Source: Candidatus Thorarchaeota archaeon (GTDB lineage: Archaea > Asgardarchaeota > Thorarchaeia > Thorarchaeales > Thorarchaeaceae). From it: a stretch of DNA of 22,040 bases. The notes beneath the pieces are model-generated. The model did no database searches. It was not told the origin of the DNA and saw only the letters and a list, made by a program, of their open reading frames with translations. Each line of letters opens with the position of its first letter. The stretch's first letter is position 1. Positions 3,305-22,040 of this stretch are shown here, piece by piece. Made by a program: the position numbers and the translations under genes. The stretch covers positions 1 through 22,040 of the forward strand of contig PRDJ01000040.1 in the NCBI GenBank assembly GCA_003345555.1, in the 5' to 3' direction.

Positions 3305-3312
3305 GTGAGAAG

Positions 3313-6117: not shown

Positions 6118-6180
6118 AGCATGGAGCATTAGAACCGCCGGCCTGATATACGTCTCAAACTATTCCTGCAAGGCAGTGGT

Positions 6181-6498: not shown

Positions 6499-6506
6499 GG
6501 GGCGCA

Positions 6507-6535: not shown

Positions 6536-6582
6536 CGACTTGTCCAGAAGAGAATCCATCCAACTCCGATGATGCTGCCACT

Positions 6583-7107: not shown

Positions 7108-7129
7108 TCAGAGAAACCTTGGGGGAGGA
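7108..7129 (+). repeat. Inverted (plus-strand) partial copy F of the hairpin repeat, containing the clostripain RBS
   Basis: ACCTTGGGGGAGGA (7116-7129) is the exact reverse complement of 12068-12081 in copy E; its GGAGG lies 5 nt upstream of GTG 7134. Confidence 0.45.
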
Positions 7130-7133
7130 TGAA

Positions 7134-8375: not shown

Positions 8376-8516
8376 ATGCGGATTCCAAACCTCTTCTTCG
8401 TCTCTCCTTCGTTTCTTGTGAATTGGGAGGATGCGTCAGGACTCCTTTCTGTCCACATTGTTCACCCTAGCGGATCAAGAGAGTTCTACCACACCCACCT
8501 CTTCTAGAGTCCGCAT

Positions 8517-8551
8517 CGCCTTTCCCCCGCAGGTGCCTTTCTTCAGGAAAG
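8517..8551 (-). repeat. Intergenic hairpin repeat, copy H
   Basis: Minus strand CTTTCCTGAAGAAAGGCACCTGCGGGGGAAAGGCG; 7-bp stem CTTTCCT/GGGAAAG; GGAAAGGCGA is identical to copy D. Confidence 0.6.
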
Positions 8552-8556
8552 AGTTT

Positions 8557-8595
8557 GGATATTAATTCACATTCAAGATTAAAATGTGCGAGGGC
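8557..8595 (-). repeat. att-like copy of the tRNA-Leu 3' end and trailer (copy A core)
   Basis: ATTAAAATGTGCGAGGGC (8578-8595) is identical to 21312-21329 and 17699-17716. GGATATTAAT (8557-8566) is identical to 17677-17686. Confidence 0.85.
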
Positions 8596-8613
8596 AGCTC
8601 GCTCGTGTCGTCA

Positions 8614-8648
8614 GCTTTCCTCCCCTGGGTCTTTTCCGAGGGAGGGAA
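8614..8648 (-). repeat. Intergenic hairpin repeat, copy A
   Basis: Minus strand TTCCCTCCCTCGGAAAAGACCCAGGGGAGGAAAGC; stem TTCC-(C)-TCCC...GGGA-GGAA, inner GG/CC, loop AAAAGA. Confidence 0.75.
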
Positions 8649-8668
8649 CACTCGTCTCCAACCCTGCC

Positions 8669-9409
8669 TTAGATCTGCTCTCTCGGTATGCAGCTCGGCT
8701 CGTGTGACACTCCATACTCGATGCCGAGCCTCTTCAGTCTCTCCTCGACTGCTGGATATAGTACCAGCTCCTCGATCTCGAAATCCTCGAACCCTATTCC
8801 TCTGAGCCTCTGCCTCAGCTTGCCGATGGCCTCATCAGAGCTGAAGCTCACCATGCATGCCGGATGTGCCCTGACGCCGTGATTCACAAGGTTCTCCAGT
8901 GCCCGTAGCTGCAGCCCGAAACCCTCAGACCTCGCCCCCGTGAGCTTCGAGAACTCCTCCTCGCAGGCTCCCTTCAAGCTCACTCTCACTCGCAAGTTTG
9001 GGAACTTCGACAAGTCCCCTGCATATGTCTCGTCGCAGCCTATGAGTATACCGTTGGTTTCCAGGATGAATACGTACTCTCTTGGGATGAGCTCCAGTAC
9101 TCTCAACAGATGATCCTTGGCAATAGTGGGTTCGTTCCCGCTTATCCTGATTTGGCGGAAGCCTTTACGCCTCGCCATAGCAACAAGATTTGAGGCTACT
9201 TCGTCGGGAGAGCACATCCTGCCGTATCTCTCGGGGTTGGCGACCTCCTTCCAGGACCAGCAGAAGACGCACTGAAGACAGCAGCCAACGCAGTCTGCCG
9301 TCGCGATGCCTCCGTAGAACCTGGCTGGCCTGAACCGATAGTAAGAGCGCATGTCGCCCCTGCACACGACTCTTGCTGTGGATTTGGCCAATTCGACTGG
9401 ATCGAACAT
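8669..9409 (-). CDS. Radical SAM protein (COG5014-like predicted Fe-S oxidoreductase), 246 aa
   Basis: RFYGGIATADCVGCCLQCVFCW contains CxxxCxxC; also RISGNEPT, LETNG and VRVSLKG. Confidence 0.92.
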   Translation of the reverse strand: MFDPVELAKSTARVVCRGDMRSYYRFRPARFYGGIATADCVGCCLQCVFCWSWKEVANPERYGRMCSPDEVASNLVAMARRKGFRQIRISGNEPTIAKDHLLRVLELIPREYVFILETNGILIGCDETYAGDLSKFPNLRVRVSLKGACEEEFSKLTGARSEGFGLQLRALENLVNHGVRAHPACMVSFSSDEAIGKLRQRLRGIGFEDFEIEELVLYPAVEERLKRLGIEYGVSHEPSCIPREQI

Positions 9410-9539
9410 TGAACGTTCTCAAATCGACATTCTGGATAGAAGAATCCTTCGAGCTGACGCTCGCTGACACTCCACACAAGAGAGAACCGAGCGAAGGGGA
9501 AACCAAAAGTCCAGCACTCGTACACGGTTGCCGTTCTAT

Positions 9540-9583
9540 CGCTTTCCTCCGAGGATGTGTGCCATGTCCTGTTCTGGAGACAT
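9540..9583 (-). repeat. Degenerate hairpin repeat, copy J (expanded spacer)
   Basis: Minus strand ATGTCTCC-AGAACAGGAC-N16-GAGGAAAGCG versus copy E ATGTCTCC-GAGAAGAC-N7-GAGGAAGGGCG. Confidence 0.4.
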
Positions 9584-9797
9584 GTCCCTCAGCGTCCAGT
9601 GTGTCGCCACGGAGCACTGTCGATAACTGGCTCGTTGGTTTCCGAGAAGGACATGAAGAGACGCCTTGAGCAATAGACCCCGCTCTCTGAAGGAACCCGA
9701 ATCCCGGACTGCTGCATGTTGTTTGGACATCGTCCATTGAATGGAATTGAGGTTCTCGACACTCCCATAACGAGTGGAATTGCCATTGCTAGATGAC

Positions 9798-9830
9798 AAA
9801 GAGAAAAAGAAAAAGGGTTGTGAAAAGGAT
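9798..9830 (-). terminator. Oligo-T terminator-like tract after the M28 peptidase gene
   Basis: Minus strand immediately after the stop reads ...ATCCTTTTCACAACCCTTTTTCTTTTTCTCTTT, typical of archaeal U-rich terminators. Confidence 0.55.
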
Positions 9831-9833
9831 TTC

Positions 9834-11897
9834 CTAGGTCGTCGCGAGCTGAATCAGCTGTGCTAGCACGGAATTGACTTGCATGATCTGCAGCGTCTCG
9901 ACGTCGATCCGATCCTGCAACACAGTCTTCTCAGACGCGAGTACAGTCTCCAGCGCCGCCTTCTCCCAGGAGATATCGGGCGACTGCACTTCCTCCTTCT
10001 GCCTGAGAGACACGTAGGCGTCGTAGATGTCAACGTACGGAGCGAGATGGCCCTGAGCGCCCCAGTTCAGATGCGGAGCATCTGGAGCATGCCTGTCGTT
10101 CTCCCACTCGAAGACTTCCTTGTCAAAGAAGGCATTCCACGTTAGCCCCACATTCCAGAGCTCGTCACAAGCATCATGCAGATTGCCGTCCTTCAGATAT
10201 CCGAGTGCGTTCGTCAACCATATCGCATCCCACTCGACCTGCTGAGTCGGATATATGACGCTGTCCCAACAGCTCAGGGCAGTCCACTCCCTGTTGATCA
10301 GCTGACTGGCCTCGGTCAGCAAGGCGTTTGCAGCATCTGCATCCCCCGCAGTCAACTTTGACGCTGCCGCATCATACTTCCGTGCGAGCGACTTGAACTC
10401 GGATATCGCTGGACCCAGCCCGCTTGCATCTACGCCAACGTAGGCGAAGTCATTTGCGTTGTAGCTCTTGGTGAGATCGACGGCGCGCTCCATGAACATG
10501 AACGGAAGTATCTTCGCGCTGTCAATTGCCTCCAAGAACTTGTGCATGACCTTCACCTGCATGGCCATGTCATCGTAGTGTATCAGGCCAAGGTTGTCCA
10601 TGTTGGTGTGGTAGATGGCGTCATATCCTGGAATCGTGTCCGAGAATGTTATCCCGGGGATGCCAGCGGCTGTCAGGGGCCATCCGTCCTGCCATGAGCT
10701 GAGCTCGGTAGTCACTTCCCATCCGTTCGGAAGCAGTGCTGGGTTCGCGCCAAAGACCGCCCTTGCCAGAGGTGCCAGCTGATAGTTCGCCCTGGCTGTG
10801 AACGGACCGGTCGAGCCGTCGAACCAACGACCTCCGATGCCTTCGATGTTCAGGAAGGCTACAGCCTCCATCGCCCAGTCGGGATGCGCCTGCGTAATCA
10901 TGTACCATGATCCGACCAGCCATTCATAGTAGGCATCGGTGTTGCCGTATTCCTCGCCCGTCGTCGCTATGAAGTAGAGGTCGTGCTCAGGCACGAAGCC
11001 CATCTTCTTCAAGGCCTTGGCCCAGGCCAGCAAGCCAGGTATTGCAGAAGTGTCGTCTGAGGCCCCGAAGAACCACGCATCATGGTGTCCCAGGATCAGG
11101 ATAGGATTCTGATGATTCCTTCCCGGATATACGCCCACGACGTTGTACCCAGAGCCTCCGTCCTCCGCAAGGGTCAACTTGACATTCGAAACCATCGTGC
11201 CGATGACGGGGCCATTAGCCATCATGCCCATGAGGCTGAAGCCGTCATTCCTCGATATGACGATCAAAGGAACTAGAGAGTCATCATAAGTAGCATCGAA
11301 ACTCCCGAGAGAGCTCGGCCACTCGTAATACACCGGATAGTTCATCGTGCTGATGATGACGCCTTTGGCACCATCAATGGTAGCCTGTTTCCCAATCAGG
11401 TTGACCCAGAAGTTGTCGGCATTCCAGTCACACAGCAAGAGCTTCCCCTGCACGCCGGTTGCAGGGTATTCCCCAGGCGTTCCCTGGCCCACATACACGA
11501 TCTCCCCGGTCAGGCCTGCCGGAGGAGTCCCTGGTACGCCACCCATCGAGGATGCCAAGAACTTGTAGGTGCCACTTGCACCGCTGACAGTCAAGCTCGC
11601 GCCCTTGAACTCCCAGGCATCAACAGGCACCCTTTCCATCCGGACATTCGATAGCCCGATCTTGACCATCTCCTGCTTGATGAAGGCCGCGCCCGCGTTT
11701 TCTGAGGAGCTTCCAGCCGCGCGGAATCCGTAGCCCGGCCATGTTCCTAGACCTACCAGCTTCTCTTCAACATACTTCTCATAGTTCTGGTCGATGTTGA
11801 GTTGTGGAGCAGGCTTCGCAACCACGAAGGACCCGCTAAAAGCCACGACTACAAAGACGAAGACTATGAGTGCTGCCAAGATTCTTCTACCAATCAT
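9834..11897 (-). CDS. Secreted M28-family zinc peptidase with PA domain, 687 aa
   Basis: Signal peptide (MIGRRILAALIVFVFVVVAFSGSFVVA); metal ligands GHHDAW, GASDD, TGEEYG, LNIEG and YHT; PA insert (GEIVYVG..G...GKLLL...A...GAKGVI). Start placed at ATG 11897. Confidence 0.92.
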   Translation of the reverse strand: MIGRRILAALIVFVFVVVAFSGSFVVAKPAPQLNIDQNYEKYVEEKLVGLGTWPGYGFRAAGSSSENAGAAFIKQEMVKIGLSNVRMERVPVDAWEFKGASLTVSGASGTYKFLASSMGGVPGTPPAGLTGEIVYVGQGTPGEYPATGVQGKLLLCDWNADNFWVNLIGKQATIDGAKGVIISTMNYPVYYEWPSSLGSFDATYDDSLVPLIVISRNDGFSLMGMMANGPVIGTMVSNVKLTLAEDGGSGYNVVGVYPGRNHQNPILILGHHDAWFFGASDDTSAIPGLLAWAKALKKMGFVPEHDLYFIATTGEEYGNTDAYYEWLVGSWYMITQAHPDWAMEAVAFLNIEGIGGRWFDGSTGPFTARANYQLAPLARAVFGANPALLPNGWEVTTELSSWQDGWPLTAAGIPGITFSDTIPGYDAIYHTNMDNLGLIHYDDMAMQVKVMHKFLEAIDSAKILPFMFMERAVDLTKSYNANDFAYVGVDASGLGPAISEFKSLARKYDAAASKLTAGDADAANALLTEASQLINREWTALSCWDSVIYPTQQVEWDAIWLTNALGYLKDGNLHDACDELWNVGLTWNAFFDKEVFEWENDRHAPDAPHLNWGAQGHLAPYVDIYDAYVSLRQKEEVQSPDISWEKAALETVLASEKTVLQDRIDVETLQIMQVNSVLAQLIQLATT

Positions 11898-12061
11898 GAG
11901 TCTTCCCCCCTTCGCGTCCTGCGAATTGCAGGACGAAGGCAAATCGAATTACGAATACAATAACCCTGTTGTTTACCATCGAGGGTCAATTCAGGAACTG
12001 TTCACGAGCGCCTGTAGGCAATTCTCTTGTTGCGATCCGAAAAATAGACCATGATTCTAGA

Positions 12062-12095
12062 CGCCCTTCCTCCCCCAAGGTCTTCTCGGAGACAT
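12062..12095 (-). repeat. Intergenic hairpin repeat, copy E
   Basis: Minus strand ATGTCTCCGAGAAGACCTTGGGGGAGGAAGGGCG; 8-bp stem TCTCCGAG/CTTGGGGG with three G-T pairs. Confidence 0.65.
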
Positions 12096-12142
12096 AGTGG
12101 GACCTACGAAGGACCGAAAGGGGTTCGAAAACGACCTCCACT

Positions 12143-15100
12143 TCACGGGTTGTAGGTCAGCACTCCGCTCGCGCTGCAATAGATCCAGTATCCCTGTCCC
12201 GGAACCAGCAAGAAATTGTTCATCGTCGGAATTGTGCTGATCCAGCTTCTGTAGGCCTTTGTTGCTGAATCCCAGGATACCACCATCTTGACGCCCCCTG
12301 CGACACTATACATCGCGGGGATGTCGCTCGCGTGCTTGGCCGTGTCGAGCGAGTTAAAGCCTATTAGCGCCCAACCCCCGCCGGCTGGGACGGCTACGGT
12401 CCTAGTCTGCGGAGTGCTCGGCAGGACTCCTTCGAGCGTGAGTGTTTCTGTCCCGCTTTGCACATAGATCCAATACCCCGTGCTGGGGACAATCGAGAAG
12501 TCCATCACCGACGGTGAGATTCCGACTATGTACATTCTGTAGGCTCCCGTAGCTGAGTTCCAACCACACACCACGTCGCCAGTATCAAGGCCGAGCGTGC
12601 TCGCTCTATGCCCTGACGCAACCACAGGTACGGCCACCAAGTTCCAGCCTTCGGATAGATTGAGGTAGAATGTGGCCGAGGCGGTGTCAAGCAGGATCGT
12701 GTCCGTGACAATCACTGAGTTGCCAGCTCTGTCCACGACCTGATAATAGACTGTCTTCATCCCATTCCCTGACAACAGGATCCAGGGCTTCGAGCTCACG
12801 GCGGGCTCCCATGAGGACCAGGACACGCCGTCGTTGCTATACCGCACCTTGTCCACATCGGATGTCGCATCGCTAGCGGTGAGCGAGAGCGCAACCGAAG
12901 TCGTGTTCGTATAGGCCGCCCCCGAGTTGATCACAATCGACGCTGTGGGCGCGACCCGGTCGAGCATTATGGAATCAGAATAGATGGCTGTATTGCCCGC
13001 GACGTCGCTGAACTGAACCTGAACCACCTTCAGGCCGCCGCCCGTGAGCGTCCACGCCTTTGTTGCCGAGAAGTTCTCCCACGTGCTCCAGCCCGAGGAA
13101 CCGTCGTTGAGCCGCATCTGCCCCATACCCGAGACCGCGTCGCTGGCCTTCAGGTCCAGCGTGACAGACGAGGAGTTGGTGTACTCCGCCCCGCTGTTGA
13201 CGACGATTGAGCCGGTCGGGGGCGTTCTGTCGAGCTTGATGCCTGTGAGGAGGCTGTGATCCTCGACGATGCCGTCGATGTCTTCGCTCCAGAATTCCAG
13301 CGTGTTGTTCGAGCCCTCGGTCGTGATCACCGGCAGGCCGTCGAGCTTCACCGTCTTCATCGGCCCGCCGTTGATGATGTAGTACGTGTCCAGAACCTGG
13401 CTTTCCGGAGCTGCTGCCGTCAGGATGATCGTAAAGTTCGAGGTGTGCCAGTAGTCGGTGTAGTCGTGGGTCGTCACGGGCCCGGTCGCCACTGGCCATG
13501 GGGCCATAAGCGGATATCTGTCGACGCTGTCGGAGTCGATCACCATAGTCGTGTCGCCTATGCCATCGCTCCCGGAGATGTCCTGGCCGGGGCCGCTGAA
13601 CGCATCCGAGCCAGAGTAGTTGCTCCAGTAGTTCCCGCCATTGGGGTAGTCATCATCCCACTGGTTCTGCGAGCCTGAATCGTCGTAGCCCCGAAGAACG
13701 TTGCCCAGGAGATTGTTGTGGAAGACCCTGATCGACGTCGAGCTCGCGATGTATATGGCGCATGTGTTGTTCCACAGATCGTTCGCCTTGATGGCGCCGT
13801 TCACCGAGCTCGTGACATATATCCCCCTGTAGCAGCATGATGAGACGTTATTCCTGACGATGTTGAATCCGTTGCACGAGCTAGCGAATATGCCGTTTCC
13901 GTTAGGGGCGGTGACGATGTTCGCCCTCACGTTGAACCCCGTGCACGAGATGACCTGAATAGCATCGCCTTTGCTCGAGACCACGTTGTTGGTGATGTTC
14001 GAGATCGTGATTCCGCTGAACACGACGCCCGTTATCTGAAGGTCCATGGCCACATTCTTCGTGACCTTCACGTCGAAGCCGGTCCAATCGACGACTATCC
14101 CGTAGTTGCTGATGGATGTGCCGGAGGCGTTGTTCCCGGAAACCACCGCGTGCTGGCAATTTGACACATGGATGTTCGCGGCCCTGTTCCGGACCGCGAT
14201 GTTGCCCGATATGAGGACATTCGTGCAGCCATTAGTGCAGATCCCGTCGCCGTTGGAGCTTCCAGACGCATTGTTCATGGAGACTGTTACGTTGGCACAG
14301 GAGACCGCTTCAATAAGGATGTTGGAGCAGTCGGAAATCGTGTTGCCAATGATGTTTGTCCATCCAGCAACCGTGGAGATCTGGACTGCTGAGCGGGACG
14401 AGCCGCCGTTGTTCGTGATGGTGTTTCGCGAAATCGTTAGATTCGAGCCTCCGGAAACGATTATGTTGTAGTTCGAGCCATGCGCCAGGCTACTGTTGTC
14501 GAGGGTGAAGTTCTCGCAGTAATTGGCTAGGACGCCATACATGTCCGTCCAGGAAACATTGGCCCCACGGATTGCGACATCCGCACAGTCATAGAACATC
14601 ATTCCCTGGCGCACGCGCGTCCCGGTTACATTCTCAATGCTCACGTCGCTCGCATACGCCATCTCGACAGCGACATCTGTATCACCGACTGACAGGTCCG
14701 CAGCAAGAACATGTGTGCAGTTCGCGACTATGAGCTGCCCAACAGGAATTCCCGTGACATCGACATGGCTCTCGTTCCTGAAGTAGTAGACCGGCTTTCC
14801 GTTGACCAGGTTGCTGGTAGCGATCGTGTGCGTATTGAATTCTTCCACGGATCCGTAGCCCATGTATGCCAATCCTGAGATCGAGATGCCATCCGACTCG
14901 AAGGTGTTGTTGACAATCGTCATCCCCACGGTGCCCTCGAGCGTGAGACCATGTTGGTCGTTCAAGAGGACGTTGTTCGCGATTGTGCAGCTGGAGGCCC
15001 AATAGAAGTTGATGCCCGTCGGTTCATCGGAGGCATTATTGCCTACGACGTTCACCTTTGAACAGAAATAGGCTACTGAGATTCCCACTTGCCAAGCTGA

Positions 15101-17023
15101 GGACACACTATTCTGCAGGATGTCTACCACCGAGCAGCCATAGATGCTGATTGAAATCGACATCTGGGCGAGATCATTGCGTGCGATGGTGGCGTTCGTG
15201 CACCAGGAGAGACTGAAGCTCCCTGCATTCCTGGCGGTGTTGTCCGCGATGAGTATGTTCGCGCTGTTTGCCAGGGCGATGCCACCGCCTCCATTGTTGA
15301 TGTGGTTGCCCACTATAGTGATGTTAGTGGCAGAGTCCATCGAGATTGCCCCGTTTGTATTGTCGGAGAAGTTGCTGCTCAGGACCCTGACGTTCGCGGA
15401 ATGGGCGGACACCAGAGTGTTTCCAACGTTTCCTCTGGCTGAACACTCAGTGACATCGATTCGTGAGCAGTGGTCGAGAAATATCGGGTTGTCGTAGTAG
15501 TTCGTGTTGTATGAGATGTCGCTGTCAGTGATATTCACGTCCTCGCAGTAGCAGAGGAGCAGAGCGTGATTATGCTCATGTGCAATCGTGACATTCTTCA
15601 TGATACAGTCGCTGACGAAGGCCATTTCGATGCCGATCTGCGTGCCGTCAATTGCCAGGTTCGCGACCTGCACATTCGTGTAGTTCGCTACGATCAGTTC
15701 ACCGACGACATCTTGATGGAAAGCCAGGTCTGTCCCGTCCTTGTAGTAATAGATTGGCTTTCCGCCAATCAGGTTGTCCGTCGTTATAGTGTGAGTGGCA
15801 TAGTAGTCGACCGAGTCTCCTTCCAGGTAGATACCACCAGAGGTGAAGACATTCCTGTTCACTTTGACGTCCTTGGAGTAGGACAGGCCAACACCAGCCG
15901 CATCCTCCCTCATGTCATTGTCGACGACAAGCGCACCGTCTGAATAGCTGAGGTAGATGCCGCTGCCCGAACTTGAGACATCGTTGGAGGCAACAATGAG
16001 GTCGCTCGAGTACGAACAGCTAATGCCGCCCGCACAATTCGAGGCATTGTTTCCGGTGATGTTGAATCCACCACAAGATGAGAGAGAGATTGCAGAACCC
16101 CAGCACCAAGAAAAGTTGTTGTCCAGAACAGTGGCGTTCCTGCAGCTCCCGCAAGATGCGCCAATGTAGGCATGCGATAGATCGTTCCCCGCGACCGTTG
16201 TATTCGCCGAGGAATACAGCCAGATGCCGCCATACACGCCCCCGAGATCATTCCCGATGATTGTGGAATTCACACAATTCTCGATGCTCATCCCGTTGGA
16301 GTATCCGAAGGGCGAGACACGATTGTTCGTCAGGGACGTGTTCCCGCAGAAGCTTGTACGGATTCCGGCGTCACCGCTCGAGGACACGTTGCATCCATTA
16401 ACGACGCTGTTCTCACTGTGCTCTATGAGGACGCTCTGGCGATTACCTGCAAACCTTGCCTGCTCAATCCGGCCGTTTGCCACACAGTCGAAGTGGATGC
16501 CCGAATAGCCGGCGGTCGTTGAGTTGATGTTCACGTCGCGTATGACGAAATAGGCGTCCGTGTTCCGGACGTCTATTCCTATCCCAAGAGAGGAATCGAT
16601 GTCCAACCCTTCGATTATGTAAGGGTCTGTGGCAGTCCCGCTTCCCGATACAACTCCGTTGGAGCTCGTGAAGTTGCTGTTCCCATCTATGAGGATGTTG
16701 GCGTGTGGCGTGCCGGATGTCCTTACTTTCATGGGCTCGTTGGGCGCGCGCTGGACGACAAACACACCCAGGGCGGAGATGATCATGACGACGGCCAACA
16801 CGACGGCAACGTGCTTTTGAGCGGGGGATCCGGAACGTCGTGACCCTGATCTGCGGATCCTGATGGAATTCTCGAGTCTATCAACGCCTGCAGAATTCGA
16901 TGCAGCGAGCGAGCGATCAGCGTTTGGCTCCTCAGCTGCCTCCTCCAGTCTTCCTTGCACTGCAAATCCCCCCAAATTCCGAATAGCGCCCGCGGAATCA
17001 CAACTGCGGTTGCCGTTTTGCAA
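12143..17023 (-). CDS. Large cell-surface protein: parallel beta-helix (NosD/CASH) repeats, Ig-like DxTPP domains and a duplicated GWxL...GYWI C-terminal domain, 1626 aa
   Basis: One hydrophobic segment (~aa 73-91); HANILIDGN...GSGT..DPYIIEG start of the beta-helix; many N-x-I-x-x-N repeats; GGNYWSNY.G.D..SG..QD..G.DGIGDT...DRYPL motif; two DR(T/V)AP/PP-x-SIV(V/I)NSGA.YTN repeats. Start codon uncertain. Confidence 0.9.
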   Translation of the reverse strand: MQNGNRSCDSAGAIRNLGGFAVQGRLEEAAEEPNADRSLAASNSAGVDRLENSIRIRRSGSRRSGSPAQKHVAVVLAVVMIISALGVFVVQRAPNEPMKVRTSGTPHANILIDGNSNFTSSNGVVSGSGTATDPYIIEGLDIDSSLGIGIDVRNTDAYFVIRDVNINSTTAGYSGIHFDCVANGRIEQARFAGNRQSVLIEHSENSVVNGCNVSSSGDAGIRTSFCGNTSLTNNRVSPFGYSNGMSIENCVNSTIIGNDLGGVYGGIWLYSSANTTVAGNDLSHAYIGASCGSCRNATVLDNNFSWCWGSAISLSSCGGFNITGNNASNCAGGISCSYSSDLIVASNDVSSSGSGIYLSYSDGALVVDNDMREDAAGVGLSYSKDVKVNRNVFTSGGIYLEGDSVDYYATHTITTDNLIGGKPIYYYKDGTDLAFHQDVVGELIVANYTNVQVANLAIDGTQIGIEMAFVSDCIMKNVTIAHEHNHALLLCYCEDVNITDSDISYNTNYYDNPIFLDHCSRIDVTECSARGNVGNTLVSAHSANVRVLSSNFSDNTNGAISMDSATNITIVGNHINNGGGGIALANSANILIADNTARNAGSFSLSWCTNATIARNDLAQMSISISIYGCSVVDILQNSVSSAWQVGISVAYFCSKVNVVGNNASDEPTGINFYWASSCTIANNVLLNDQHGLTLEGTVGMTIVNNTFESDGISISGLAYMGYGSVEEFNTHTIATSNLVNGKPVYYFRNESHVDVTGIPVGQLIVANCTHVLAADLSVGDTDVAVEMAYASDVSIENVTGTRVRQGMMFYDCADVAIRGANVSWTDMYGVLANYCENFTLDNSSLAHGSNYNIIVSGGSNLTISRNTITNNGGSSRSAVQISTVAGWTNIIGNTISDCSNILIEAVSCANVTVSMNNASGSSNGDGICTNGCTNVLISGNIAVRNRAANIHVSNCQHAVVSGNNASGTSISNYGIVVDWTGFDVKVTKNVAMDLQITGVVFSGITISNITNNVVSSKGDAIQVISCTGFNVRANIVTAPNGNGIFASSCNGFNIVRNNVSSCCYRGIYVTSSVNGAIKANDLWNNTCAIYIASSTSIRVFHNNLLGNVLRGYDDSGSQNQWDDDYPNGGNYWSNYSGSDAFSGPGQDISGSDGIGDTTMVIDSDSVDRYPLMAPWPVATGPVTTHDYTDYWHTSNFTIILTAAAPESQVLDTYYIINGGPMKTVKLDGLPVITTEGSNNTLEFWSEDIDGIVEDHSLLTGIKLDRTPPTGSIVVNSGAEYTNSSSVTLDLKASDAVSGMGQMRLNDGSSGWSTWENFSATKAWTLTGGGLKVVQVQFSDVAGNTAIYSDSIMLDRVAPTASIVINSGAAYTNTTSVALSLTASDATSDVDKVRYSNDGVSWSSWEPAVSSKPWILLSGNGMKTVYYQVVDRAGNSVIVTDTILLDTASATFYLNLSEGWNLVAVPVVASGHRASTLGLDTGDVVCGWNSATGAYRMYIVGISPSVMDFSIVPSTGYWIYVQSGTETLTLEGVLPSTPQTRTVAVPAGGGWALIGFNSLDTAKHASDIPAMYSVAGGVKMVVSWDSATKAYRSWISTIPTMNNFLLVPGQGYWIYCSASGVLTYNP

Positions 17024-17053
17024 TCGCTATGAATGGGTTAAGAATCTTTCGGT

Positions 17054-17089
17054 GCATTTCCGCCCTTGTGGTCTTTTCTTGAGCTGGAA
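17054..17089 (-). repeat. Intergenic hairpin repeat, copy K
   Basis: Minus strand TTCCAGCTCAAGAAAAGACCACAAGGGCGGAAATGC; stem TTCC-(A)-GCTC...GGGC-GGAA; GAAAAGACC is identical to copies A and D. Confidence 0.7.
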
Positions 17090-17195
17090 TTCCCACATTG
17101 TCGGAGCTGAAGGCTTATCACAAGGAATAGCCATCGATTCTATCACAACAAAGAAGTGGATAACGCAAAGAGGACAGTAGGAGGAGAAAGCGGCG

Positions 17196-17669
17196 ATGAG
17201 ATCGCTCTTGATTGTTGCTTCGTATCATCACGGAAACACCGAGAAGATTGCGAGCGTGTTTGCCCGGGTCCTTGAGGCGCAGACAAGGACGCCCAACCAG
17301 ATACATCCTGAAGAGCTTCAAGAGTATGATCTCATCGGCTTTGGCTCAGGCATCTACGATGCAAAGCACCATACTGATATTCTCGACCTTGCCGATAGAC
17401 TACCGCAAGTCACCAACAAGCTGGCATTCATTTTCTCAACTAGTAGTCACATAGGTGATGACCAAGTCGCCAAAGACCACTCCACACTCAGGGAGAAGCT
17501 GAAGTCGAAAGGTTACGTGATCGTTGACGAATTCAGCTGCAAGGGTTTCAATACGAATAGTTTCCTTGGGCATTTTGGGGGCATGAACAAGGGCAGGCCG
17601 AATGCGGATGACCTCATGCATGCGGAAGCGTTTGCCACGAACCTGAAGCAGACCACGCATGCCACATAG
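17196..17669 (+). CDS. Flavodoxin-family protein, 157 aa
   Basis: FMN phosphate loop SYHHGNTEKIA, DLIGFGSGIY, AFIFST and GRPN..DL..A..FA; RBS GGAGGAG upstream. Confidence 0.92.
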   Translation: MRSLLIVASYHHGNTEKIASVFARVLEAQTRTPNQIHPEELQEYDLIGFGSGIYDAKHHTDILDLADRLPQVTNKLAFIFSTSSHIGDDQVAKDHSTLREKLKSKGYVIVDEFSCKGFNTNSFLGHFGGMNKGRPNADDLMHAEAFATNLKQTTHAT

Positions 17670-17676
17670 CCAACCC

Positions 17677-17722
17677 GGATATTAATCTGAATTCTTAGAT
17701 TAAAATGTGCGAGGGCCCGGAT
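17677..17722 (-). repeat. att-like copy of the tRNA-Leu 3' end and trailer (copy B core)
   Basis: ATTAAAATGTGCGAGGGCCCGGAT (17699-17722) is identical over 24 bp to 21312-21335; adjacent palindrome ATATTAATCTG-AATTCT-TAGATTAAAAT at 17679-17706. Confidence 0.9.
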
Positions 17723-17773
17723 ATTTGCCCGGAATTTGCCGGCATTTAAACCCTCCACCTATAGAATTCATAA

Positions 17774-17782
17774 GTGCGAGGG
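17774..17782 (-). repeat. Short remnant of the tRNA-Leu 3' end
   Basis: GTGCGAGGG matches 21320-21328. It is short, and is supported only by lying within 60 bp of copy B and 80 bp of copy D. Confidence 0.4.
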
Positions 17783-17853
17783 AGAAATCGACGATCGATT
17801 ATTGACATCGAATCTACTGGCAATTAAAGGTCCCAGCAATAACTGCCGGCATG

Positions 17854-17909
17854 AAATGTGCGAAGTATTCCGCTCGTACCGTCGCCTTTCCTCCCGGTCT
17901 TTTCTGAGG
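17854..17909 (-). repeat. Hairpin repeat copy D plus degenerate att core; homologous to 8582-8641
   Basis: Minus strand CCTCAGAAAAGACC---GGGAGGAAAGGCGACGGTACGAGCGGAATACTTCGCACATTT aligns with copy A at about 46 of 60 columns (hand alignment). Confidence 0.8.
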
Positions 17910-17921
17910 CTCAGGATTAGG

Positions 17922-19775
17922 TCATGTCATGTTCTTCTTGAGGAAGCCGACAATACTCTTGATTTGACGAGCATTCTCTCTCCAATCGCATCTGGAGGAG
18001 ATGTGCCCTGCCTTGTCCTCAAGGATGAACTCGTGAGGGTGATTCATATCTTCCAGTTTCTTGACGAACCTCAGTACAGGCTGTATTGGACATCTTGCAT
18101 CTGTCTTTCCACCCTTGATTAAGACCGGAGCCGTGATCTTCGATATGTGAGTAATCGGGGACCTGCTTCGAAGCAACTCTCTTTTCTTGGAGACCGACCC
18201 TCCAAACTGCTCTTCGATAAACGACTTGAATGTGGCATCTGCCAATTCGTTCATCTCCAACCAGTCCGTTATTGGAACACCTGCGACGCCAGCGGCAAAG
18301 ACTTTCGGCTTCGTCGTCAGAGCCATCAGGGTCATGTATCCGCCGTAGGAGAAGCCGCCAATCGCTATCTTCGTAGCTTGAATGTCTTTCTGTCTGCGAA
18401 GCCATTCGGCGGCATACACTTCATCCTCCAGGTCACCTCCACCAAGGTCTCCAACATTCAGCCTCCTGAACTCGGCTCCGTAGCCGGTCGAGCCTCTGAC
18501 ATTCGGGGCGATGACTGCGAACCCGCTCAACGAAAAAGCGTGCAAGGAATCCGCAGATATCCAATCATCAAAAACCTGCCAGTTCGGACCCCCGTGCACC
18601 CAGACTATTGCGGGACTCGGCCCTGCCTTTGACGCCGAAGGCACGTACCATGCGTGAATATCGCGTCCATCAAAGGATTTGTACCAAACGGACCTTGGAG
18701 TGGCTAGCTTGGTCAGGTCGATACCATACTTCTGCGAGGTCAAAGCTACTGCAGACTTTGCGCCACTTCTTAGCCAATAGATTGCCGGTGGGGAAGTCAG
18801 CGACGAGTGGAGCGCGGCTACTGATCCGTCTGAAGTCACCTTCATGCATGTGATTGTGCCCTCGGGAAACGGGAGATTCTTGCCCTTCTTCTGGGTCAGT
18901 CTATGCTCACGGACGACGCTGCGGCTGTGCTTGCTGACGATGTAGAACACTCTATCCGCTTTAGGTCCCCACACCGGCCATCCAAGAACCTCTTCACCAA
19001 CCTCCAAATCCAAGAACTGCCGTGACTGGCTCCGAAGATCCTGGATGACAACCTGGCGTACTCCCTTTGCATCGCTCTCAAAGGCGAGCCTCTTGTCGTC
19101 AGGGGAGAAGGACGGAAAGTTGTCTCTAGAGTCTTTCTTTACACTGTAGGTGGTCATATCCGATGGATTGCCCCTCCTGAAGACCATGATCTCTTCACTC
19201 TTGGGACTGGCCGTCGCATCGCACGCAATGTATTTGCCGTCATGAGAATAGGTCACAGTTCCGATCGGAGGCGTCGCCTCCTTCAGCATGAAACACTCGC
19301 CGGTTGCCGTGTCGATAGTCTCCAGACCGCAGGATTCCTTCTTGGTGATCGCACGAGTGACTTCCTTTGCGTTCGGACTCCAATCGAAGAGCCCCCACAT
19401 CCTGTATGGGGTCTTGGTGATCCTCCTTGGCCTTCCACCCTCTGTTGGCAGCAGATACATGTCAAATGTCTCGTTTCCATCACGGTCTTTAGGGAAGACG
19501 AACTCGCGTCCGTTCGGAGAGAAAAGTCCGAGATCTACGGGATCTTCGCCTTTGGTCAGTTGAACTGGCTTCGAGCAAGGCTTCGTATGCTGGCAATAGA
19601 TTTCGAGATTCCCCGTCCGGTTCGAGGAATAGAGCAAGGTCTTCCCATCTCGAGTAACGTCGAAGACCTCGTAGAACGGAGATATCACTGGAATCTTGAG
19701 CACGTCCAGGTACGACGGCAGAATGTTGACCACCCGCTTGGGCCAATTCCATTCCATCTCCTTAGGTCTTTCCAT
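17922..19775 (-). CDS. S9-family peptidase (acylaminoacyl-peptidase/dipeptidyl peptidase-like) with beta-propeller, 617 aa
   Basis: VHGGP, NVRGSTGYG, nucleophile GFSYGG, Asp in D-ARC, His in AGH; N-terminal WD40/TolB-like FSPDxK repeats; no signal peptide seen. Confidence 0.95.
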   Translation of the reverse strand: MERPKEMEWNWPKRVVNILPSYLDVLKIPVISPFYEVFDVTRDGKTLLYSSNRTGNLEIYCQHTKPCSKPVQLTKGEDPVDLGLFSPNGREFVFPKDRDGNETFDMYLLPTEGGRPRRITKTPYRMWGLFDWSPNAKEVTRAITKKESCGLETIDTATGECFMLKEATPPIGTVTYSHDGKYIACDATASPKSEEIMVFRRGNPSDMTTYSVKKDSRDNFPSFSPDDKRLAFESDAKGVRQVVIQDLRSQSRQFLDLEVGEEVLGWPVWGPKADRVFYIVSKHSRSVVREHRLTQKKGKNLPFPEGTITCMKVTSDGSVAALHSSLTSPPAIYWLRSGAKSAVALTSQKYGIDLTKLATPRSVWYKSFDGRDIHAWYVPSASKAGPSPAIVWVHGGPNWQVFDDWISADSLHAFSLSGFAVIAPNVRGSTGYGAEFRRLNVGDLGGGDLEDEVYAAEWLRRQKDIQATKIAIGGFSYGGYMTLMALTTKPKVFAAGVAGVPITDWLEMNELADATFKSFIEEQFGGSVSKKRELLRSRSPITHISKITAPVLIKGGKTDARCPIQPVLRFVKKLEDMNHPHEFILEDKAGHISSRCDWRENARQIKSIVGFLKKNMT

Positions 19776-19945
19776 CAGTTTCTCGAAGATTCACGAAGTC
19801 AGGAGATTATCCCTGCGATTGATGGTTAAGGACAGTTCGTGTCTTGTTTTGGACATCACAGGGCAAATCCAAAGAGAAGGCGGTAAGAGTGTGAGTCTGC
19901 TCGGAGAGCTGGATCATTCTTTGCTGGCAAGAATCCCGTTTCTTC

Positions 19946-19978
19946 CGCCTTTCTTACCCTCTGGTCCTTTGCAGGATA
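19946..19978 (-). repeat. Intergenic hairpin repeat, copy G
   Basis: Minus strand TATCCTGCAAAGGACCAGAGGGTAAGAAAGGCG; stem TATCCT/AGGGTA; ends in GAAAGGCG like copies D and H. Confidence 0.55.
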
Positions 19979-20089
19979 GCCTGATGATTGCAGAGAATTC
20001 GCAACTCTAGTGACCCCGTCCTTGGAACGACGCAATGAATATCTGAGGATAGGTGATTGATCCTCAAGGAGCCTGGGAGTTGAAACAGA

Positions 20090-21232
20090 ATGAAGGGCAG
20101 ACGCATAGCGACCTGTTGGGCAATGCTAGCAATCGCCGTTCTGGGAATGACCGCTATTTCTGGTACGAGCTCTGCTCATCTGCCTATGTACTCTCCGGGC
20201 GGATCCACGATGAGCACTGCTCTGAAGATTCCAGATGCAAACACATCGTATGGCATAACCGCGGAGTTTCCATCTTCCACCAATCGAATCCAGTTCTACG
20301 CATTCTCAGTGTACGCGGGGCAAGACCTTTCCTTCGAACTGGACGTCCCAGCGACATCAAGCCTTCAGGATTTCGCGCCAGTGATCCTCCTCATTGGCCC
20401 GGGCCTCCATTCTCCCGACAGCAATACATCAAGAATAATCGATGAATTCAGCATCACACTATCATCTGGAGACGGGGCGACTATCTATCTCTACAATGGC
20501 ACTGAGAACGTCAGAGTGTTCGAACCTTTCACCCAGACAAACCTGTGGGTTCGCCAGAGCGGGGAGGTTACACTCCCCTCTACGGGGATCTACTACCTTG
20601 CTGTTGCTGTTCCTCAGGGGTGGCCGCACGATGCCACCTCGGGATTCGGCAAGTACATTCTGGCTCCAGGCACAGTAGAGAGGTTCACTCTGCTTGACTA
20701 TATGTCTATTCCAATAGACTGGGTGAAGTGGCACGCATTCTGGGGACAATCCGTTCTGTTGCTTATGGTTCCCACCTTCTTGGTCGTCGTCATTGGAGTC
20801 ACGGGAACTTGGTACTATCTCAAGAATCGCCGACCAGAGATGCTCGAGTCCAAGCCGAGCGTCACCAGAACCGGGTTCTATCTCGGAGCAGTTGGCGCGA
20901 TGTTGATGGTGGGCAGCACCGTCAACCAAATGGCGCTGCTCTTCTACTACACCAGGTTCTCGCTGGAGACGGCAGACTACATAGAGCTTATGCTACAAGT
21001 CATTGGACTCGTCCTCGGCATCCTTGCATTTCGTATGGTCTTCGGCTTGATGCAACCGAGATCCACTGCAAGGAAGGTTCTCAGCATCGCTCTTCTAGTT
21101 TTGATCGGGTTCGCTGCACTGATGGTCGGAGCTGGTTGGCTCGTCGGTCCAGTATTGTTTGCTTGTGCGGGCTTGACCGAGCTCTTGTCGGCAAATAGAA
21201 CTGAGCGAAGAACCGATGCGTTGGAACGCTGA
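20090..21232 (+). CDS. Hypothetical membrane protein (signal peptide, extracellular beta-rich domain, ~5 C-terminal TM helices), 380 aa
   Basis: Hydrophobic N-terminus ending in SSA-H; soluble region with FEPFTQT and G.YYLAV; several hydrophobic C-terminal segments. Confidence 0.85.
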   Translation: MKGRRIATCWAMLAIAVLGMTAISGTSSAHLPMYSPGGSTMSTALKIPDANTSYGITAEFPSSTNRIQFYAFSVYAGQDLSFELDVPATSSLQDFAPVILLIGPGLHSPDSNTSRIIDEFSITLSSGDGATIYLYNGTENVRVFEPFTQTNLWVRQSGEVTLPSTGIYYLAVAVPQGWPHDATSGFGKYILAPGTVERFTLLDYMSIPIDWVKWHAFWGQSVLLLMVPTFLVVVIGVTGTWYYLKNRRPEMLESKPSVTRTGFYLGAVGAMLMVGSTVNQMALLFYYTRFSLETADYIELMLQVIGLVLGILAFRMVFGLMQPRSTARKVLSIALLVLIGFAALMVGAGWLVGPVLFACAGLTELLSANRTERRTDALER

Positions 21233-21293
21233 ACATCATGCAAGAGTGTCCCATCTATTCTCAACTATGATCCTTTTCCCAAGAAGCTTGCGC

Positions 21294-21335
21294 ATTAATC
21301 CAAATCTATGAATTAAAATGTGCGAGGGCCCGGAT
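21294..21335 (-). repeat. Chromosomal att-like core (copy C): tRNA-Leu 3' end plus trailer and ATTAAT arm
   Basis: ATTAAT-N12-ATTAAAATGTGCGAGGGCCCGGAT; source of the copies at 17699 and 8578. Confidence 0.85.
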
Positions 21336-21405
21336 TTGAACCGGGGGACTCCTGCGAGAACAGATCTTGAGTCTGTCGCCTTTGACCGAGCTTGGCTACC
21401 CTCGC
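21321..21405 (-). tRNA. tRNA-Leu (anticodon CAA), 85 nt, CCA not encoded
   Basis: GCGAGGG/CCCTCGC acceptor stem plus discriminator A; D-arm GCC..GGC; anticodon arm ACAGA-CTCAAGA-TCTGT; variable arm CTC-GCAG-GAG; T-arm CCCGG-TTCAAAT-CCGGG; T4 tract directly downstream. Confidence 0.98.
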
Positions 21406-21432
21406 TCTGTTGCCTTGTTAGGCCGGATTTCG

Positions 21433-21439
21433 TAATAAA
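21433..21439 (-). promoter_or_regulatory. TATA box of tRNA-Leu
   Basis: TTTATTA on the minus strand starting 34 nt upstream of the mature tRNA 5' end. Confidence 0.55.
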
Positions 21440-21484
21440 GTATTGCATACCCCCATCCATTGGACGTTCATCCAGCGGAGTTGC

Positions 21485-21673
21485 TTAACATTTGAAAACA
21501 ATCTCCACGCGAAACGTACCCCGGCCAAGGAATTGCCTTCCAGGCCATGAGAACCGTCGCCTGGCAGGAACGTTGTTTGATGGGTGAAACCGAAAGGCAT
21601 TAATGTTATGGATGCATAATGTTTCACCCGGTAGAACGTGCGCGCGTTCTACCTCTCCAACATGGAGAGGCAT
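21485..21673 (-). CDS. Putative small hypothetical protein, 62 aa
   Basis: MPLHVGEVERAHVLPGETLCIHNINAFRFHPSNNVPARRRFSWPGRQFLGRGTFRVEIVFKC, preceded by RBS-like GAGGTG 8 nt before the ATG; co-oriented between map and the tRNA. No family recognised. Confidence 0.3.
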   Translation of the reverse strand: MPLHVGEVERAHVLPGETLCIHNINAFRFHPSNNVPARRRFSWPGRQFLGRGTFRVEIVFKC

Positions 21674-21859
21674 TACCAACACACCTCGCCATTTCCTCCA
21701 GAATTTCGAACCACCCACAACTTTTTCACAAAAGAGGTGTTCGTCGTGCCTCTCCACTCAGCTTTTTTCTGATCGGTTCGATGCTACGGCGATTGACGAG
21801 TCTACGAAGATCCATCTACGCCTGACCTGTAGTGCATCCCCCGCCACAGACCAGAACTC

Positions 21860-22040
21860 CTAGGTCAACTGCTCGCATCCGTCGGAAGTAACGAGCACGC
21901 TGTGCTCCGCCTGGGCGACGATTCCGGCTGCCGTGTCGGTGAGGACCGGATAGTTCATGACGATGCCCAGTCGGAACATCTTGCGCAGGAACGCCTGTGC
22001 GTCTGGATCCAGCTTATCGCACCATCTGCCTGCGAACGGG
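21860..22040 (-). CDS. map: Type II methionine aminopeptidase, C-terminal 59 aa (runs off window edge)
   Basis: Hand translation PFAGRWCDKLDPDAQAFLRKMFRLGIVMNYPVLTDTAAGIVAQAEHSVLVTSDGCEQLT* contains the MetAP2 PF..RW, YPVL and AQ.EH(T/S)V.V motifs. Confidence 0.92.
   Translation of the reverse strand, partial: PFAGRWCDKLDPDAQAFLRKMFRLGIVMNYPVLTDTAAGIVAQAEHSVLVTSDGCEQLT

Follow-up and report, generated by a model that had tools for sequence, protein, structure and literature searches.

The window analysed here, that is the whole stretch of 22,040 nucleotides, is best read as holding a hypervariable island (~1502-21319) that lies between tRNA-Leu(CAA) and a conserved aminotransferase gene. At least six cassettes of one gene each, none with an integrase, are stacked over its tRNA-proximal 13 kb, and the remainder is the older, distal portion of the island. 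The stack probably arose as cargo-only cassettes were captured one after another, site-specifically, through an integrase supplied in trans. The original prediction had proposed that units with cargo but no integrase of their own had inserted serially at the tRNA-Leu 3' end; its observations are confirmed and its interpretation is supported in part. The core idea stands, and catalysis in trans is something we infer. The minimum of two to four insertions then given was right as to multiple units and too few in number, and the 13 kb between the outer repeat copies underestimated the extent: the island runs from 21319 to ~1502, well beyond the outer copy at 8578.

The contig carrying the window (C40) is a compositional outlier within its Asgard bin, and its membership is that of a Thermoplasmata family. 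It was wrongly binned, its host being an uncultured Thermoplasmata archaeon and not an Asgard archaeon. Because the contig is not Asgard, comparisons with the Asgard family are uninformative: DNA synteny matches with the bin's 40 nearest relatives were confined to the tRNA and the flavodoxin gene, flavodoxin homologues of Asgard genomes had no flanks in common with the window, the tRNA end pattern gave only chance matches within genes in that family, and conservation was not found for the C11 peptidase (at most 34% identity) or the saccharopine dehydrogenase (24-30% identity) against Asgard relatives. A genome-wide search for recombinases, proposed with the original prediction, yielded nothing above cut-off in the bin with PF00589, PF16795 (no match over cut-off in the assembly) or XerA, a result that says nothing about the host because C40 is mis-binned. 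In practice, such islands get mis-binned and break assemblies, and when an integrase seems to be missing from a genome bin, the provenance of the contig should be checked first. The family-level comparisons given below draw on 46 genomes of the Thermoplasmata family of G103.

The tRNA-Leu(CAA) gene, with orthologues 89-100% identical in 32 of the 46 family genomes, is complete at the island's end, as is the intact target of tRNA-targeted elements. All previously reported direct matches to its end (24, 18, 10 and 9 bp) were found. The 18-mer ATTAAAATGTGCGAGGGC, which consists of the tRNA trailer and the tRNA-Leu(CAA) 3' end, occurs in three exact copies (8578, 17699 and 21312, all on the + strand) against 0.03 expected, none of 100 shuffles reaching three, and a search for further copies found it nowhere else in the 2.28-Mb assembly. 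The identity grows to 24 bp between 17699-17722 and 21312-21335, the latter block consisting of 8 nt of trailer and 16 nt of tRNA 3' end. At the unit boundaries, the repeats of the tRNA 3' end (24 bp at 17699, 18 bp at 8578) are direct and lie in the orientation of the tRNA. The 10-bp (17854-17863) and 9-bp (17774-17782) matches are by themselves at background level in a local-alignment scan, and gain meaning only from their place within a junction element that other contigs conserve as a unit. The earlier count of up to five repeats holds as far as the matches exist, but those at 17699, 17774 and 17854 are parts of a single element, J, of ~255 nt here, which is one conserved unit and not three insertion scars (Table 1).

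Table 1. Features of the window, from the conserved distal flank to the conserved proximal flank
Feature	Position	Strand	Evidence and remarks
Conserved distal flank	2-1501	-	Aminotransferase 377-1501; next gene 2-331
Distal island part, without clear junctions	1502-8513		Rieske, ArsR, two saccharopine dehydrogenases, two small ORFs, C11 peptidase; Pfam
Very degenerate distal J core beside aminotransferase	1666-1699	+	Weak nhmmer match, E = 0.35
J(A), internally deleted	8514-8647	+	Same element as J(B)
Cassette 6: radical SAM protein	8669-9409	-	Pfam PF04055
Partial motif G and ~100-nt conserved element, radical-SAM/M28 boundary	9538-9657	+	Motif G 9538-9554
Cassette 5: M28 peptidase	9834-11942	-	Pfam PF04389
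Motif-only junction E, M28/NosD-like boundary	12060-12091	+	nhmmer E = 0.011; regex match
Cassette 4: 1626-aa NosD/beta-helix surface protein	12143-17023	-	Pfam PF05048, PF13229
Motif-only junction F, NosD-like/flavodoxin boundary	17055-17083	+	L070 homology begins 17058
Cassette 3: flavodoxin-like protein	17196-17669	+	Pfam PF12724
Full junction J(B)	17663-17918	+	nhmmer E = 4e-82 and 1e-77
Cassette 2: S9 prolyl-oligopeptidase-family peptidase	17922-19775	-	Pfam PF00326, E = 2e-41
Degenerate junction D, S9/P0001 boundary	19841-19975	+	GTGTGAG core remnant ~19889; terminal motif 19944-19975
Cassette 1: secreted/membrane protein P0001	20090-21232	+	No Pfam family
tRNA-proximal junction	21250-21335	+	Weak motif copy 21250-21286; trailer-like arm 21281-21319; 24-bp block 21312-21335
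tRNA-Leu(CAA), array anchor (attB-like)	21320/21321-21405	-	ARAGORN; Rfam RF00005, 56 bits
Conserved proximal flank	21654-22040	+	Hairpin and oligo-T element 21654-21770 (105-117 nt); core gene start 21887-22040

That the repeats reflect chance, or an assembly or binning artefact, is scarcely credible. The contig is indeed mis-binned and the two shortest matches are at background level, but besides the excess of exact 18-mers, the same architecture recurs in independent assemblies (ENA, Logan, JGI and 37 genomes), which contradicts the assembly artefact envisaged at the outset, and five public runs from two studies contain 95-97% of the stretch's words, a sixth run containing 73%.

In the Logan contigs of the public runs, breaks or branches occur at the tRNA and at J, and coverage of the window is incomplete. 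No circle, excision or deletion junction at J was seen in these Logan contigs, a search of contigs only that carries no evidential weight.

In its full copy, J(B), the element comprises a trailer-like arm (17663-17698), a core (17699-17722, 24 bp identical to the tRNA end together with its trailer) and a P arm (17723-17918) which contains both short tRNA matches as well as a terminal motif of ~30 nt (17880-17909). J(B) aligns with copies in contigs L060 and L061 and is 75-88% identical to ~30 copies in 18 JGI contigs; multiple co-oriented copies are also present in the ENA contig L060, and J was found in 37 of the 46 family genomes. In related arrays, every J copy points the same way as the tRNA, and the core is unchanged relative to the tRNA while the arms drift. 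J(A) starts with a motif copy (H, 8514-8547) and a trailer-like arm, then passes at once from an 18-bp core (8578-8595) to the terminal motif (8609-8641), ~165 nt of P arm being absent between two AAATGTGCGA(G/A) repeats. The J pattern had no match in the viral contig or genome contig collections.

The terminal motif marks other gene boundaries too, always on the + strand (five matches on + and none on - in the window, versus 0.08 expected) and at the same end of every unit regardless of gene strand; most of the cassettes are separated by this motif alone. Junction D is 83% identical to positions 717-847 of contig L069, homology with L069 ending at 19970 and homology with L059 beginning at 19968, and the stretch 9555-9657 next to partial motif G is 77-83% identical to L070, L068 and L063, where J copies adjoin. 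Towards the aminotransferase, the very degenerate core might be the outermost scar of the array, a possibility to which we attach low confidence.

Cassettes move as units and recur elsewhere with other neighbours, which supports the core idea of the original prediction. The P0001 unit (19968-21250) is 89% identical to L059 634-1915, the homology ending at 21250, and its breakpoints coincide with motifs; the flavodoxin gene together with J (17058-17832) is 83% identical to L070 7175-6400. The neighbours differ in both L059 and L070. Within the window, the breakpoints relative to L059, L069 and L070 fall at the terminal motif and not at the core; crossover might therefore take place at this motif as well as, or instead of, at the core. 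Four of the cassette genes lie on the - strand and two on the + strand, the latter having their own 110-120 nt of upstream sequence. In the distal part of the island, the Rieske protein has a homologue in G123 that is a J-bounded cassette. Both flanks are conserved: the aminotransferase has 70-79% identical orthologues in 45 of the 46 family genomes and is found, in many of them, on the tRNA-Leu/J contig, 8-75 kb off and in the same relative orientation, while the hairpin and oligo-T element (95-97% identical) and the start of the core gene (68-73%) lie beside tRNA-Leu in G103, G120, G124, G125, G138, G143 and G144.

Related arrays begin directly behind the tRNA in L072, G143, G140, G144 and G146, and their cassettes are reshuffled. 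Two cassettes common to L070 and L078 (95-98% identical) differ in order, one cassette is present twice in G143, J to J, with 98.7% identity, and further cassettes are common to G124/G125 and to G125/G143. Comparison with relatives, another check proposed at the outset, showed that content varies exactly from the tRNA end and at J copies. Upstream of the tRNA, G138, G143 and G144 share 93-95% identity; their homology ceases 6 nt beyond the 3' end of the gene, and their proximal content is wholly different. Such content differences between close relatives, with breakpoints at the att core, are characteristic of tandem tRNA-targeted elements. A distal array is common to G143 and G144, and at the junction where it resumes identity is 100% through trailer and core, ~90% in the P arm, and then the sequences are unrelated. 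This switch places the crossover at the tRNA-derived core in one close pair, which consists of relatives and not of the window's own species.

Alternatively, no dedicated integrase would be needed if J (150-280 nt) served as portable homology, general homologous recombination moving the cassettes as circles that loop out between direct repeats and, after DNA uptake, re-enter at any J or at this tRNA. We regard this route as unlikely. J copies within one genome are 80-90% identical over 110-130 nt, which may suffice for such exchanges, but the core remains identical to the tRNA while the arms drift, and the drop in identity in the G143/G144 pair falls exactly at the core edge. Most array-bearing genomes are without the tRNA-Leu integrase, but four genomes carry this cognate-looking enzyme exactly at the tRNA-Leu site, and three near-identical genomes have their insertions precisely where the tRNA ends. 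Motif-only junctions and the deleted J(A) resemble repeat-mediated deletions, which would suit homologous recombination. So would the arrays of G124 and G125, which lie 170-360 kb from a tRNA-Leu whose 3' flank is without J; therefore, either arrays are not always anchored at the tRNA or rearrangement is frequent.

In agreement with the original prediction, no integrase, transposase or replication gene was detected between the repeat copies, nor any Cas1 gene, when all large ORFs were searched with Pfam and PHROGs, and tblastn of 11 archaeal tyrosine recombinases and of the family's tRNA-Leu integrase gave no match in the window. By tblastn, neither integrase nor remnant was found in ~120 kb of the closest metagenome contigs, nor integrase fragments in 21 related contigs with dozens of units. 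Related genomes do hold an integrase of matching position: a tyrosine integrase of 324-325 aa, with a SAM-like N domain, a PF00589 domain and the R, HxxR and Y residues, is encoded in G120 and G138 at a distance of 0.6-0.9 kb behind tRNA-Leu(CAA), where G144 and G118 have truncated copies. Overall, only five of the 46 family genomes contain the tRNA-Leu integrase, which comes from genera other than that of the window, and four of its six copies are truncated. The Pfam matches of this integrase are the ordinary PF00589, PF13495 and PF02899. An RHH/coiled-coil partner gene accompanies the integrase directly behind the same tRNA in related genomes, and the J that closes the integrase unit of G144 possesses a P arm of the type seen with the cargo cassettes of G143. 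The position of this candidate enzyme suggests specificity for the tRNA-Leu(CAA) 3' end.

Another integrase, G140:C14 (85 bits), was rejected as a member of this type, being of a different type and 26% identical. A third, G115-type integrase is encoded close to J copies in both G111 and G115, and in G124 a fragment adjoins tRNA-Val; this integrase probably serves another site.

The array could also be a series of eroded tandem islands, each unit having once been autonomous with an integrase that was later deleted, so that the units would be CIME-like remnants never mobile as cargo only. We consider this improbable. The truncated tRNA-Leu integrases make integrase decay visible, decay is the accepted origin of CIMEs (PMC5704250), and tycheposon islands show degenerated integrases and scattered partial tRNAs (10.1101/2020.12.28.424599); the units described here, however, measure 0.7-5 kb, mostly contain one gene, and yielded no integrase fragment by tblastn in either the window or the 21 related contigs. 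The same one-gene units moreover recur across arrays and orders, even twice within one array, with complete J arms, and independent decay is therefore hard to credit.

In the serial capture that we favour, each cassette is bounded by a J whose layout is that of an att site as left by a tRNA-targeting tyrosine integrase. It consists of a trailer-like arm, a core identical to 8 nt of trailer and the final 10-24 nt of the tRNA, and a conserved P arm (75-190 nt) leading to the ~30-nt motif. A circular cassette bearing an attP-like J would recombine with the 3' end of the tRNA gene, thereby regenerating the tRNA and moving the older cassettes farther out. Catalysis would fall to a tyrosine integrase specific for tRNA-Leu, encoded by few elements of the family and acting in trans on cargo-only cassettes, as for CIMEs or integron cassettes. 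Later deletions between repeated motifs in J may have produced the motif-only junctions and fixed the cassettes in place.

More tentatively, Thermoplasmata may possess an integron-like form of gene capture on a tRNA gene, in which a rare, easily lost tyrosine integrase and its RHH partner behind tRNA-Leu(CAA) would act in trans on a large pool of environmental one-gene cassettes that carry a conserved attP-like site of 150-280 nt each and are stacked, shuffled and exchanged between genera; we lean neither firmly for nor firmly against this extension. If true, small-genome uncultured archaea would maintain fast-turnover accessory genes at one chromosomal address, and no cassette gene would need its own recombinase. 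The accessory pool includes peptidases, hydrolases, surface and membrane proteins, and some defence genes. The G120/G138-type integrase and the J site form a pair bearing on an archaeal functional analogue of integron capture, with a tRNA end as landing pad.

Several known systems share parts of this organisation. CIMEs are cis-mobilizable elements, i.e., decayed ICEs or IMEs, known from the ICESt1/ICESt3 family of Streptococcus (PMC5704250). As in CIME accretion (PMC5704250), one end is formed by an intact target gene, whose 3' end is repeated directly at the borders of units that have att sites and no integrase, an integrase from another element is assumed, and new elements would enter at the att site containing the gene end. 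Unlike CIMEs, most units found here consist of one cargo gene, with up to 10 or more units in an array, and they recur across an archaeal family without conjugation machinery; they have a long att-like element of 150-280 nt that is conserved from cassette to cassette, and origin by decay of ICEs or IMEs is not evident. The tycheposon islands of Prochlorococcus (10.1101/2020.12.28.424599) similarly lie beside tRNA genes with full and partial tRNA copies, successive integrations pushing older elements inward, and contain degenerate integrase remnants and niche-adaptive cargo. They are, however, bacterial and described with their own tyrosine recombinase and often with replication or packaging modules, and regular one-gene integrase-free arrays with a shared long arm are not in that description. 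In the ssrA islands of Dehalococcoides (PMC3146451), a single small-RNA gene likewise has several islands with strain-variable cargo stacked at its 3' end, with direct repeats of that end between them. These islands are bacterial, and the description in the title and abstract is of a vinyl chloride reductase island integrated at the single-copy ssrA (tmRNA) gene and of its site-specific mobilization, not of one-gene integrase-free arrays.

The arrays also resemble integrons, the archaeal integrons of Ghaly et al. (10.1101/2022.02.06.479319) and CALINs (attC clusters without integrase) in having a fixed entry site and small co-oriented cargo cassettes, every cassette having a single recombination site, always on the same side. 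These cassettes are shuffled, duplicated and common between genomes, and an integrase lies beside the entry site in some genomes and is missing in others. Integron cassettes are promoterless, mostly in one orientation and read from Pc, and attC sites are imperfect palindromes with R/L boxes. In our arrays, by contrast, the layout of the site is that of a tRNA 3' end copy with arms and not of an attC hairpin, a functional tRNA gene takes the place of attI as entry site, cassette genes lie on either strand with their own upstream regions, and the candidate integrase is, by its Pfam matches, an ordinary SAM-domain tyrosine recombinase. No integrase of the IntI type beside an attI was found in the window by Pfam or tblastn. 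SSV-type 'suicidal' integrases have their gene split by integration, with att inside the gene and the N- and C-terminal fragments flanking the insert; no integrase-like fragment was found anywhere in the window by tblastn or Pfam. Casposons encode a Cas1 casposase, usually with PolB, and have terminal inverted repeats. Neither Cas1 nor PolB was among the Pfam matches of the window's ORFs, and a casposon reading was rejected, the boundaries being direct and not inverted repeats.

By eye, a TTTAAA box and a T-arm-like CCGG hairpin are retained in the P arm of J, the end of which is similar to the 5' flank of the tRNA. From this eye alignment, we considered that J might represent a promoter, one half of a split tRNA, or an entire tRNA gene in degenerate form.

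The 3' end of tRNA-Leu(CAA) recurs in the window as an 18-mer, in which 8 nt of trailer are joined to the last 10 nt of the tRNA. Three exact, co-oriented copies are present where shuffles predict 0.03, and a search of the bin (2.28 Mb, 82 contigs) for further copies found none beyond these. The direct repeats reported in the original prediction were confirmed at 8578 (18 bp) and at 17699, where identity to the tRNA extends over 24 bp. The two shorter matches, of 10 bp at 17854 and 9 bp at 17774, do exist; scoring at background when taken alone and lying inside one larger element, they do not count as separate copies. All three 18-mers share a common ATTAAT...ATTAAAAT trailer on their left flank, and the sequence past 8595 matches that past 17863.

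Close homologues of the window's membrane protein P0001 led to contigs L059 and L060, the latter carrying at least four copies of an element that matches window 17699-17911 as one block. A pattern derived from this block matched 18 JGI metagenome contigs, in most of which nhmmer located 1-3 co-oriented copies. Since L060 and the JGI contigs carry the homologous block as a unit, the corresponding stretch of the window is a single junction element, J. Its P arm contains the 9-mer and the 10-mer and terminates in a motif of ~30 nt. The 8578 copy corresponds to J minus ~165 nt, deleted between two internal AAATGTGCGA repeats. A tolerant pattern of the terminal motif gave 5 matches on the plus strand of the window and 0 on the minus strand, with 0.08 expected, and the motif forms the left end of every one-gene unit, independently of gene strand. 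Because it stands at the same end of each unit, the 13-kb stretch consists of six or more single-gene cassettes in a row and not of two to four islands; the serial-insertion reading of the original prediction is retained in substance, with the number and nature of the repeat copies revised. The stretch between the copies codes for a radical-SAM protein, an M28 peptidase, a 1626-aa NosD/beta-helix protein, a flavodoxin, an S9 peptidase and a family-less membrane protein; no recombinase, transposase, Cas1 or replication gene was found among its ORFs. The gap between the radical-SAM and M28 genes includes ~100 nt of non-coding sequence with counterparts of 77-83% identity in contigs L070, L068 and L063; those in L068 and L063 adjoin J copies, in the opposite relative orientation.

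Coordinates of the features discussed (positions in the window unless another contig is named)
Feature	Position	Strand	Remark
Aminotransferase gene	377-1501
tRNA-to-aminotransferase interval	1502-21319
18-mer of tRNA end	8578, 17699, 21312		co-oriented
Terminal motif	8514, 8609, 12060, 17055, 17880, 19944; partial at 9538
Non-coding stretch	9555-9657
Flavodoxin gene	17196-17669
J	17663-17918		trailer-like arm, core identical to tRNA end, P arm
P0001 unit	19968-21250
tRNA-Leu(CAA)	21320-21405	-	tRNA gene calls
Candidate small RNA	21654-21770	+	hairpin arms 21663-21682 and 21737-21756
Duplicated G143 cassette	L176 12211-14449; L177 5627-7865
G120 gene following integrase	L183 5634-6758
Second integrase type, G115	L192 3252-4310
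Second integrase type, G124 fragment	L179 6651-6821
Split G125 aminotransferase	L182 9429-9638; G125:C1:1377455-1378021

The window is the whole of contig C40 (22,040 bp), which stands out compositionally in its bin, with a tetranucleotide correlation of 0.755 (bin median 0.968) and a GC content of 55.2%, where every other contig of at least 10 kb except C51 has 49-52%. Neither the tRNA end nor any close homologue of a C40 gene occurs in Asgard relatives, and the named relatives of the membrane protein are Thermoplasmata. In the family of the Thermoplasmata MAG G103 (46 genomes), tRNA and trailer are found at 89-100% identity in 32 genomes, orthologues of the aminotransferase at 70-79% identity in 45, and a 105-117-nt element with a gene start, located upstream of the tRNA, is kept beside tRNA-Leu in 7. 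Based on outlying composition, absent Asgard matches and Thermoplasmata orthologues, C40 is a Thermoplasmata contig mis-binned into an Asgard bin. Consequently, the lack of any tyrosine recombinase in the bin, which the proposed search did establish, is uninformative on the host. Other findings assigned to this 'Thorarchaeota' genome need their contig provenance checked. No contig of the bin other than C40 and C51 is a compositional outlier (both 55.2% GC; correlations 0.76 and 0.69, median 0.97), and the foreign organism behind C40 may also be the source of C51. At the DNA level, six Asgard genomes of other families hold genes 66-75% identical to the flavodoxin gene but have no match to the remainder of C40; this gene is unusually conserved or transferred.

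J copies occur in 37 of the 46 family genomes, mostly as co-oriented clusters. Behind the tRNA of G143 at least 10 copies lie within 21 kb, and arrays also begin at the tRNA in G140, G144, G146 and contig L072. Many genomes have the aminotransferase in matching relative orientation, 8-75 kb past the tRNA or J copies, so the interval between tRNA and aminotransferase is of very variable length. A Rieske homologue forms a J-bounded cassette in G123. Exchange is observed at the level of cassettes: the P0001 unit is 89% identical in L059, among different neighbours and bounded by nothing more than motif copies; the flavodoxin gene with J is 83% identical in L070; and L070 and L078 have two cassettes in common (95-98%) in changed order. 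A two-gene cassette of G143 (286 aa and 323 aa) is present twice, from J to J, at 98.7% identity, and further cassettes are common to G124 and G125 and to G125 and G143.

Comparison of relatives bore out variation at the site itself. The clearest case is offered by G138, G143 and G144, which share 93-95% identity upstream of the tRNA and lose homology 6 nt past its 3' end, insertion thus lying exactly at the tRNA end. Behind it, G143 carries four cassettes, G144 an integrase unit and two other cassettes, and G138 an integrase followed by ~30 kb. G143 and G144 have a distal array in common, and at the junction where they rejoin, identity is 100% through trailer and core and drops to ~90% over the initial part of the P arm, beyond which the sequences are unrelated. 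This profile, which maps one crossover to the core, is exactly what recombination within the tRNA-derived core would predict. In the public sequencing run X4, one Logan contig joins the tRNA 3' end, exactly at 21320, to unrelated sequence, and Logan contigs from X1 and X4 join 21407 to 21655, the 247 nt between tRNA and conserved element being skipped or replaced; the population therefore holds variants on both sides of the tRNA. The aminotransferase of G125 is split into two pieces, the N-terminal one 8 kb downstream of tRNA-Leu and the C-terminal one 5 kb upstream of it, and the J array of this genome is 170 kb away, which suggests an inversion or translocation with one end in this locus.

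A PF00589 scan of the 46 genomes, crossed with tRNA and J coordinates, revealed in G120 and G138 a tyrosine integrase of 324-325 aa, 0.6-0.9 kb behind tRNA-Leu(CAA), a position cognate to the site. The two proteins share 74% identity, and both retain the R, HxxR and Y residues. A gene of ~200 aa, beginning ~55 nt past the tRNA, precedes the integrase; its N-terminus looks RHH-like by eye, and Pfam gave only weak coiled-coil matches. G144 carries the same gene pair (98.6% identical to G138) with the integrase truncated past about residue 212, followed by an ORF, the J that closes the unit, and further cassettes; this J shares its P-arm type with the G143 cargo cassettes. Truncated copies also occur in G114 and twice in G118, once 0.6 kb from tRNA-Leu and once elsewhere. 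Neither the window nor its bin nor the 21 nearest contigs contain a homologue, and the near-complete, array-bearing genomes G143, G124 and G125 encode XerA and a few other recombinases, none inside their arrays. The gene right after the G120 integrase encodes a CAP12/Pycsar-type TIR effector domain, and this unit therefore likely carries a defence gene. A second integrase type (352 aa) lies a few kb from J copies in G115 and G111 (L190); a 57-aa fragment of it beside tRNA-Val(GAC) in G124 suggests a parallel system at another tRNA.

Anatomy and comparisons fit serial attP x attB recombination of the classical type at the tRNA 3' end. Most units carry only cargo and an attP-like J and would thus depend on the integrase of a minority of elements; the candidate integrase would recognise J and act in trans on cassettes passing through circles. 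Homologous recombination between J copies is a serious partial alternative, since breakpoints in the window itself coincide with the terminal motif, the arrays of G124 and G125 lie far from the tRNA and an integrase is missing from most arrays; such recombination is probably behind the deletions that leave motif-only junctions. For the array as a whole, sequence comparison argues for tRNA-anchored accretion of units presumably mobilized in trans, which would provide a testable archaeal analogue of cassette capture.

The nearest described systems include CIME-type tandem accretion (PMC5704250), islands seeded by tycheposons, with partial tRNAs scattered in them (10.1101/2020.12.28.424599), and islands stacked in tandem at small-RNA genes, ssrA for example (PMC3146451). 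Integrons, including archaeal ones (10.1101/2022.02.06.479319), behave alike; this is not an integron, however, because its junctions are copies of a tRNA end with arms and apparently not attC-type sites, and because it uses a tRNA gene as entry site, has genes on both strands and shows no IntI. SSV-type elements were rejected, as tblastn and Pfam turned up no integrase fragment in the window, and so were casposons, as the window's ORFs gave no Cas1 or PolB match and the boundaries are direct repeats. A limited literature search turned up no account of Thermoplasmata arrays in which one-gene cassettes without an integrase are regularly bounded by tRNA ends.

The 105-117-nt element upstream of the tRNA forms a long imperfect hairpin followed by an oligo-T run, and seven family genomes have it beside tRNA-Leu at 95-97% identity. 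Being neither a tRNA nor assignable to an Rfam family, it is a candidate for an unknown small RNA. Within it, the stretch CGCCATTTCCTCC resembles the cassette junction motif.
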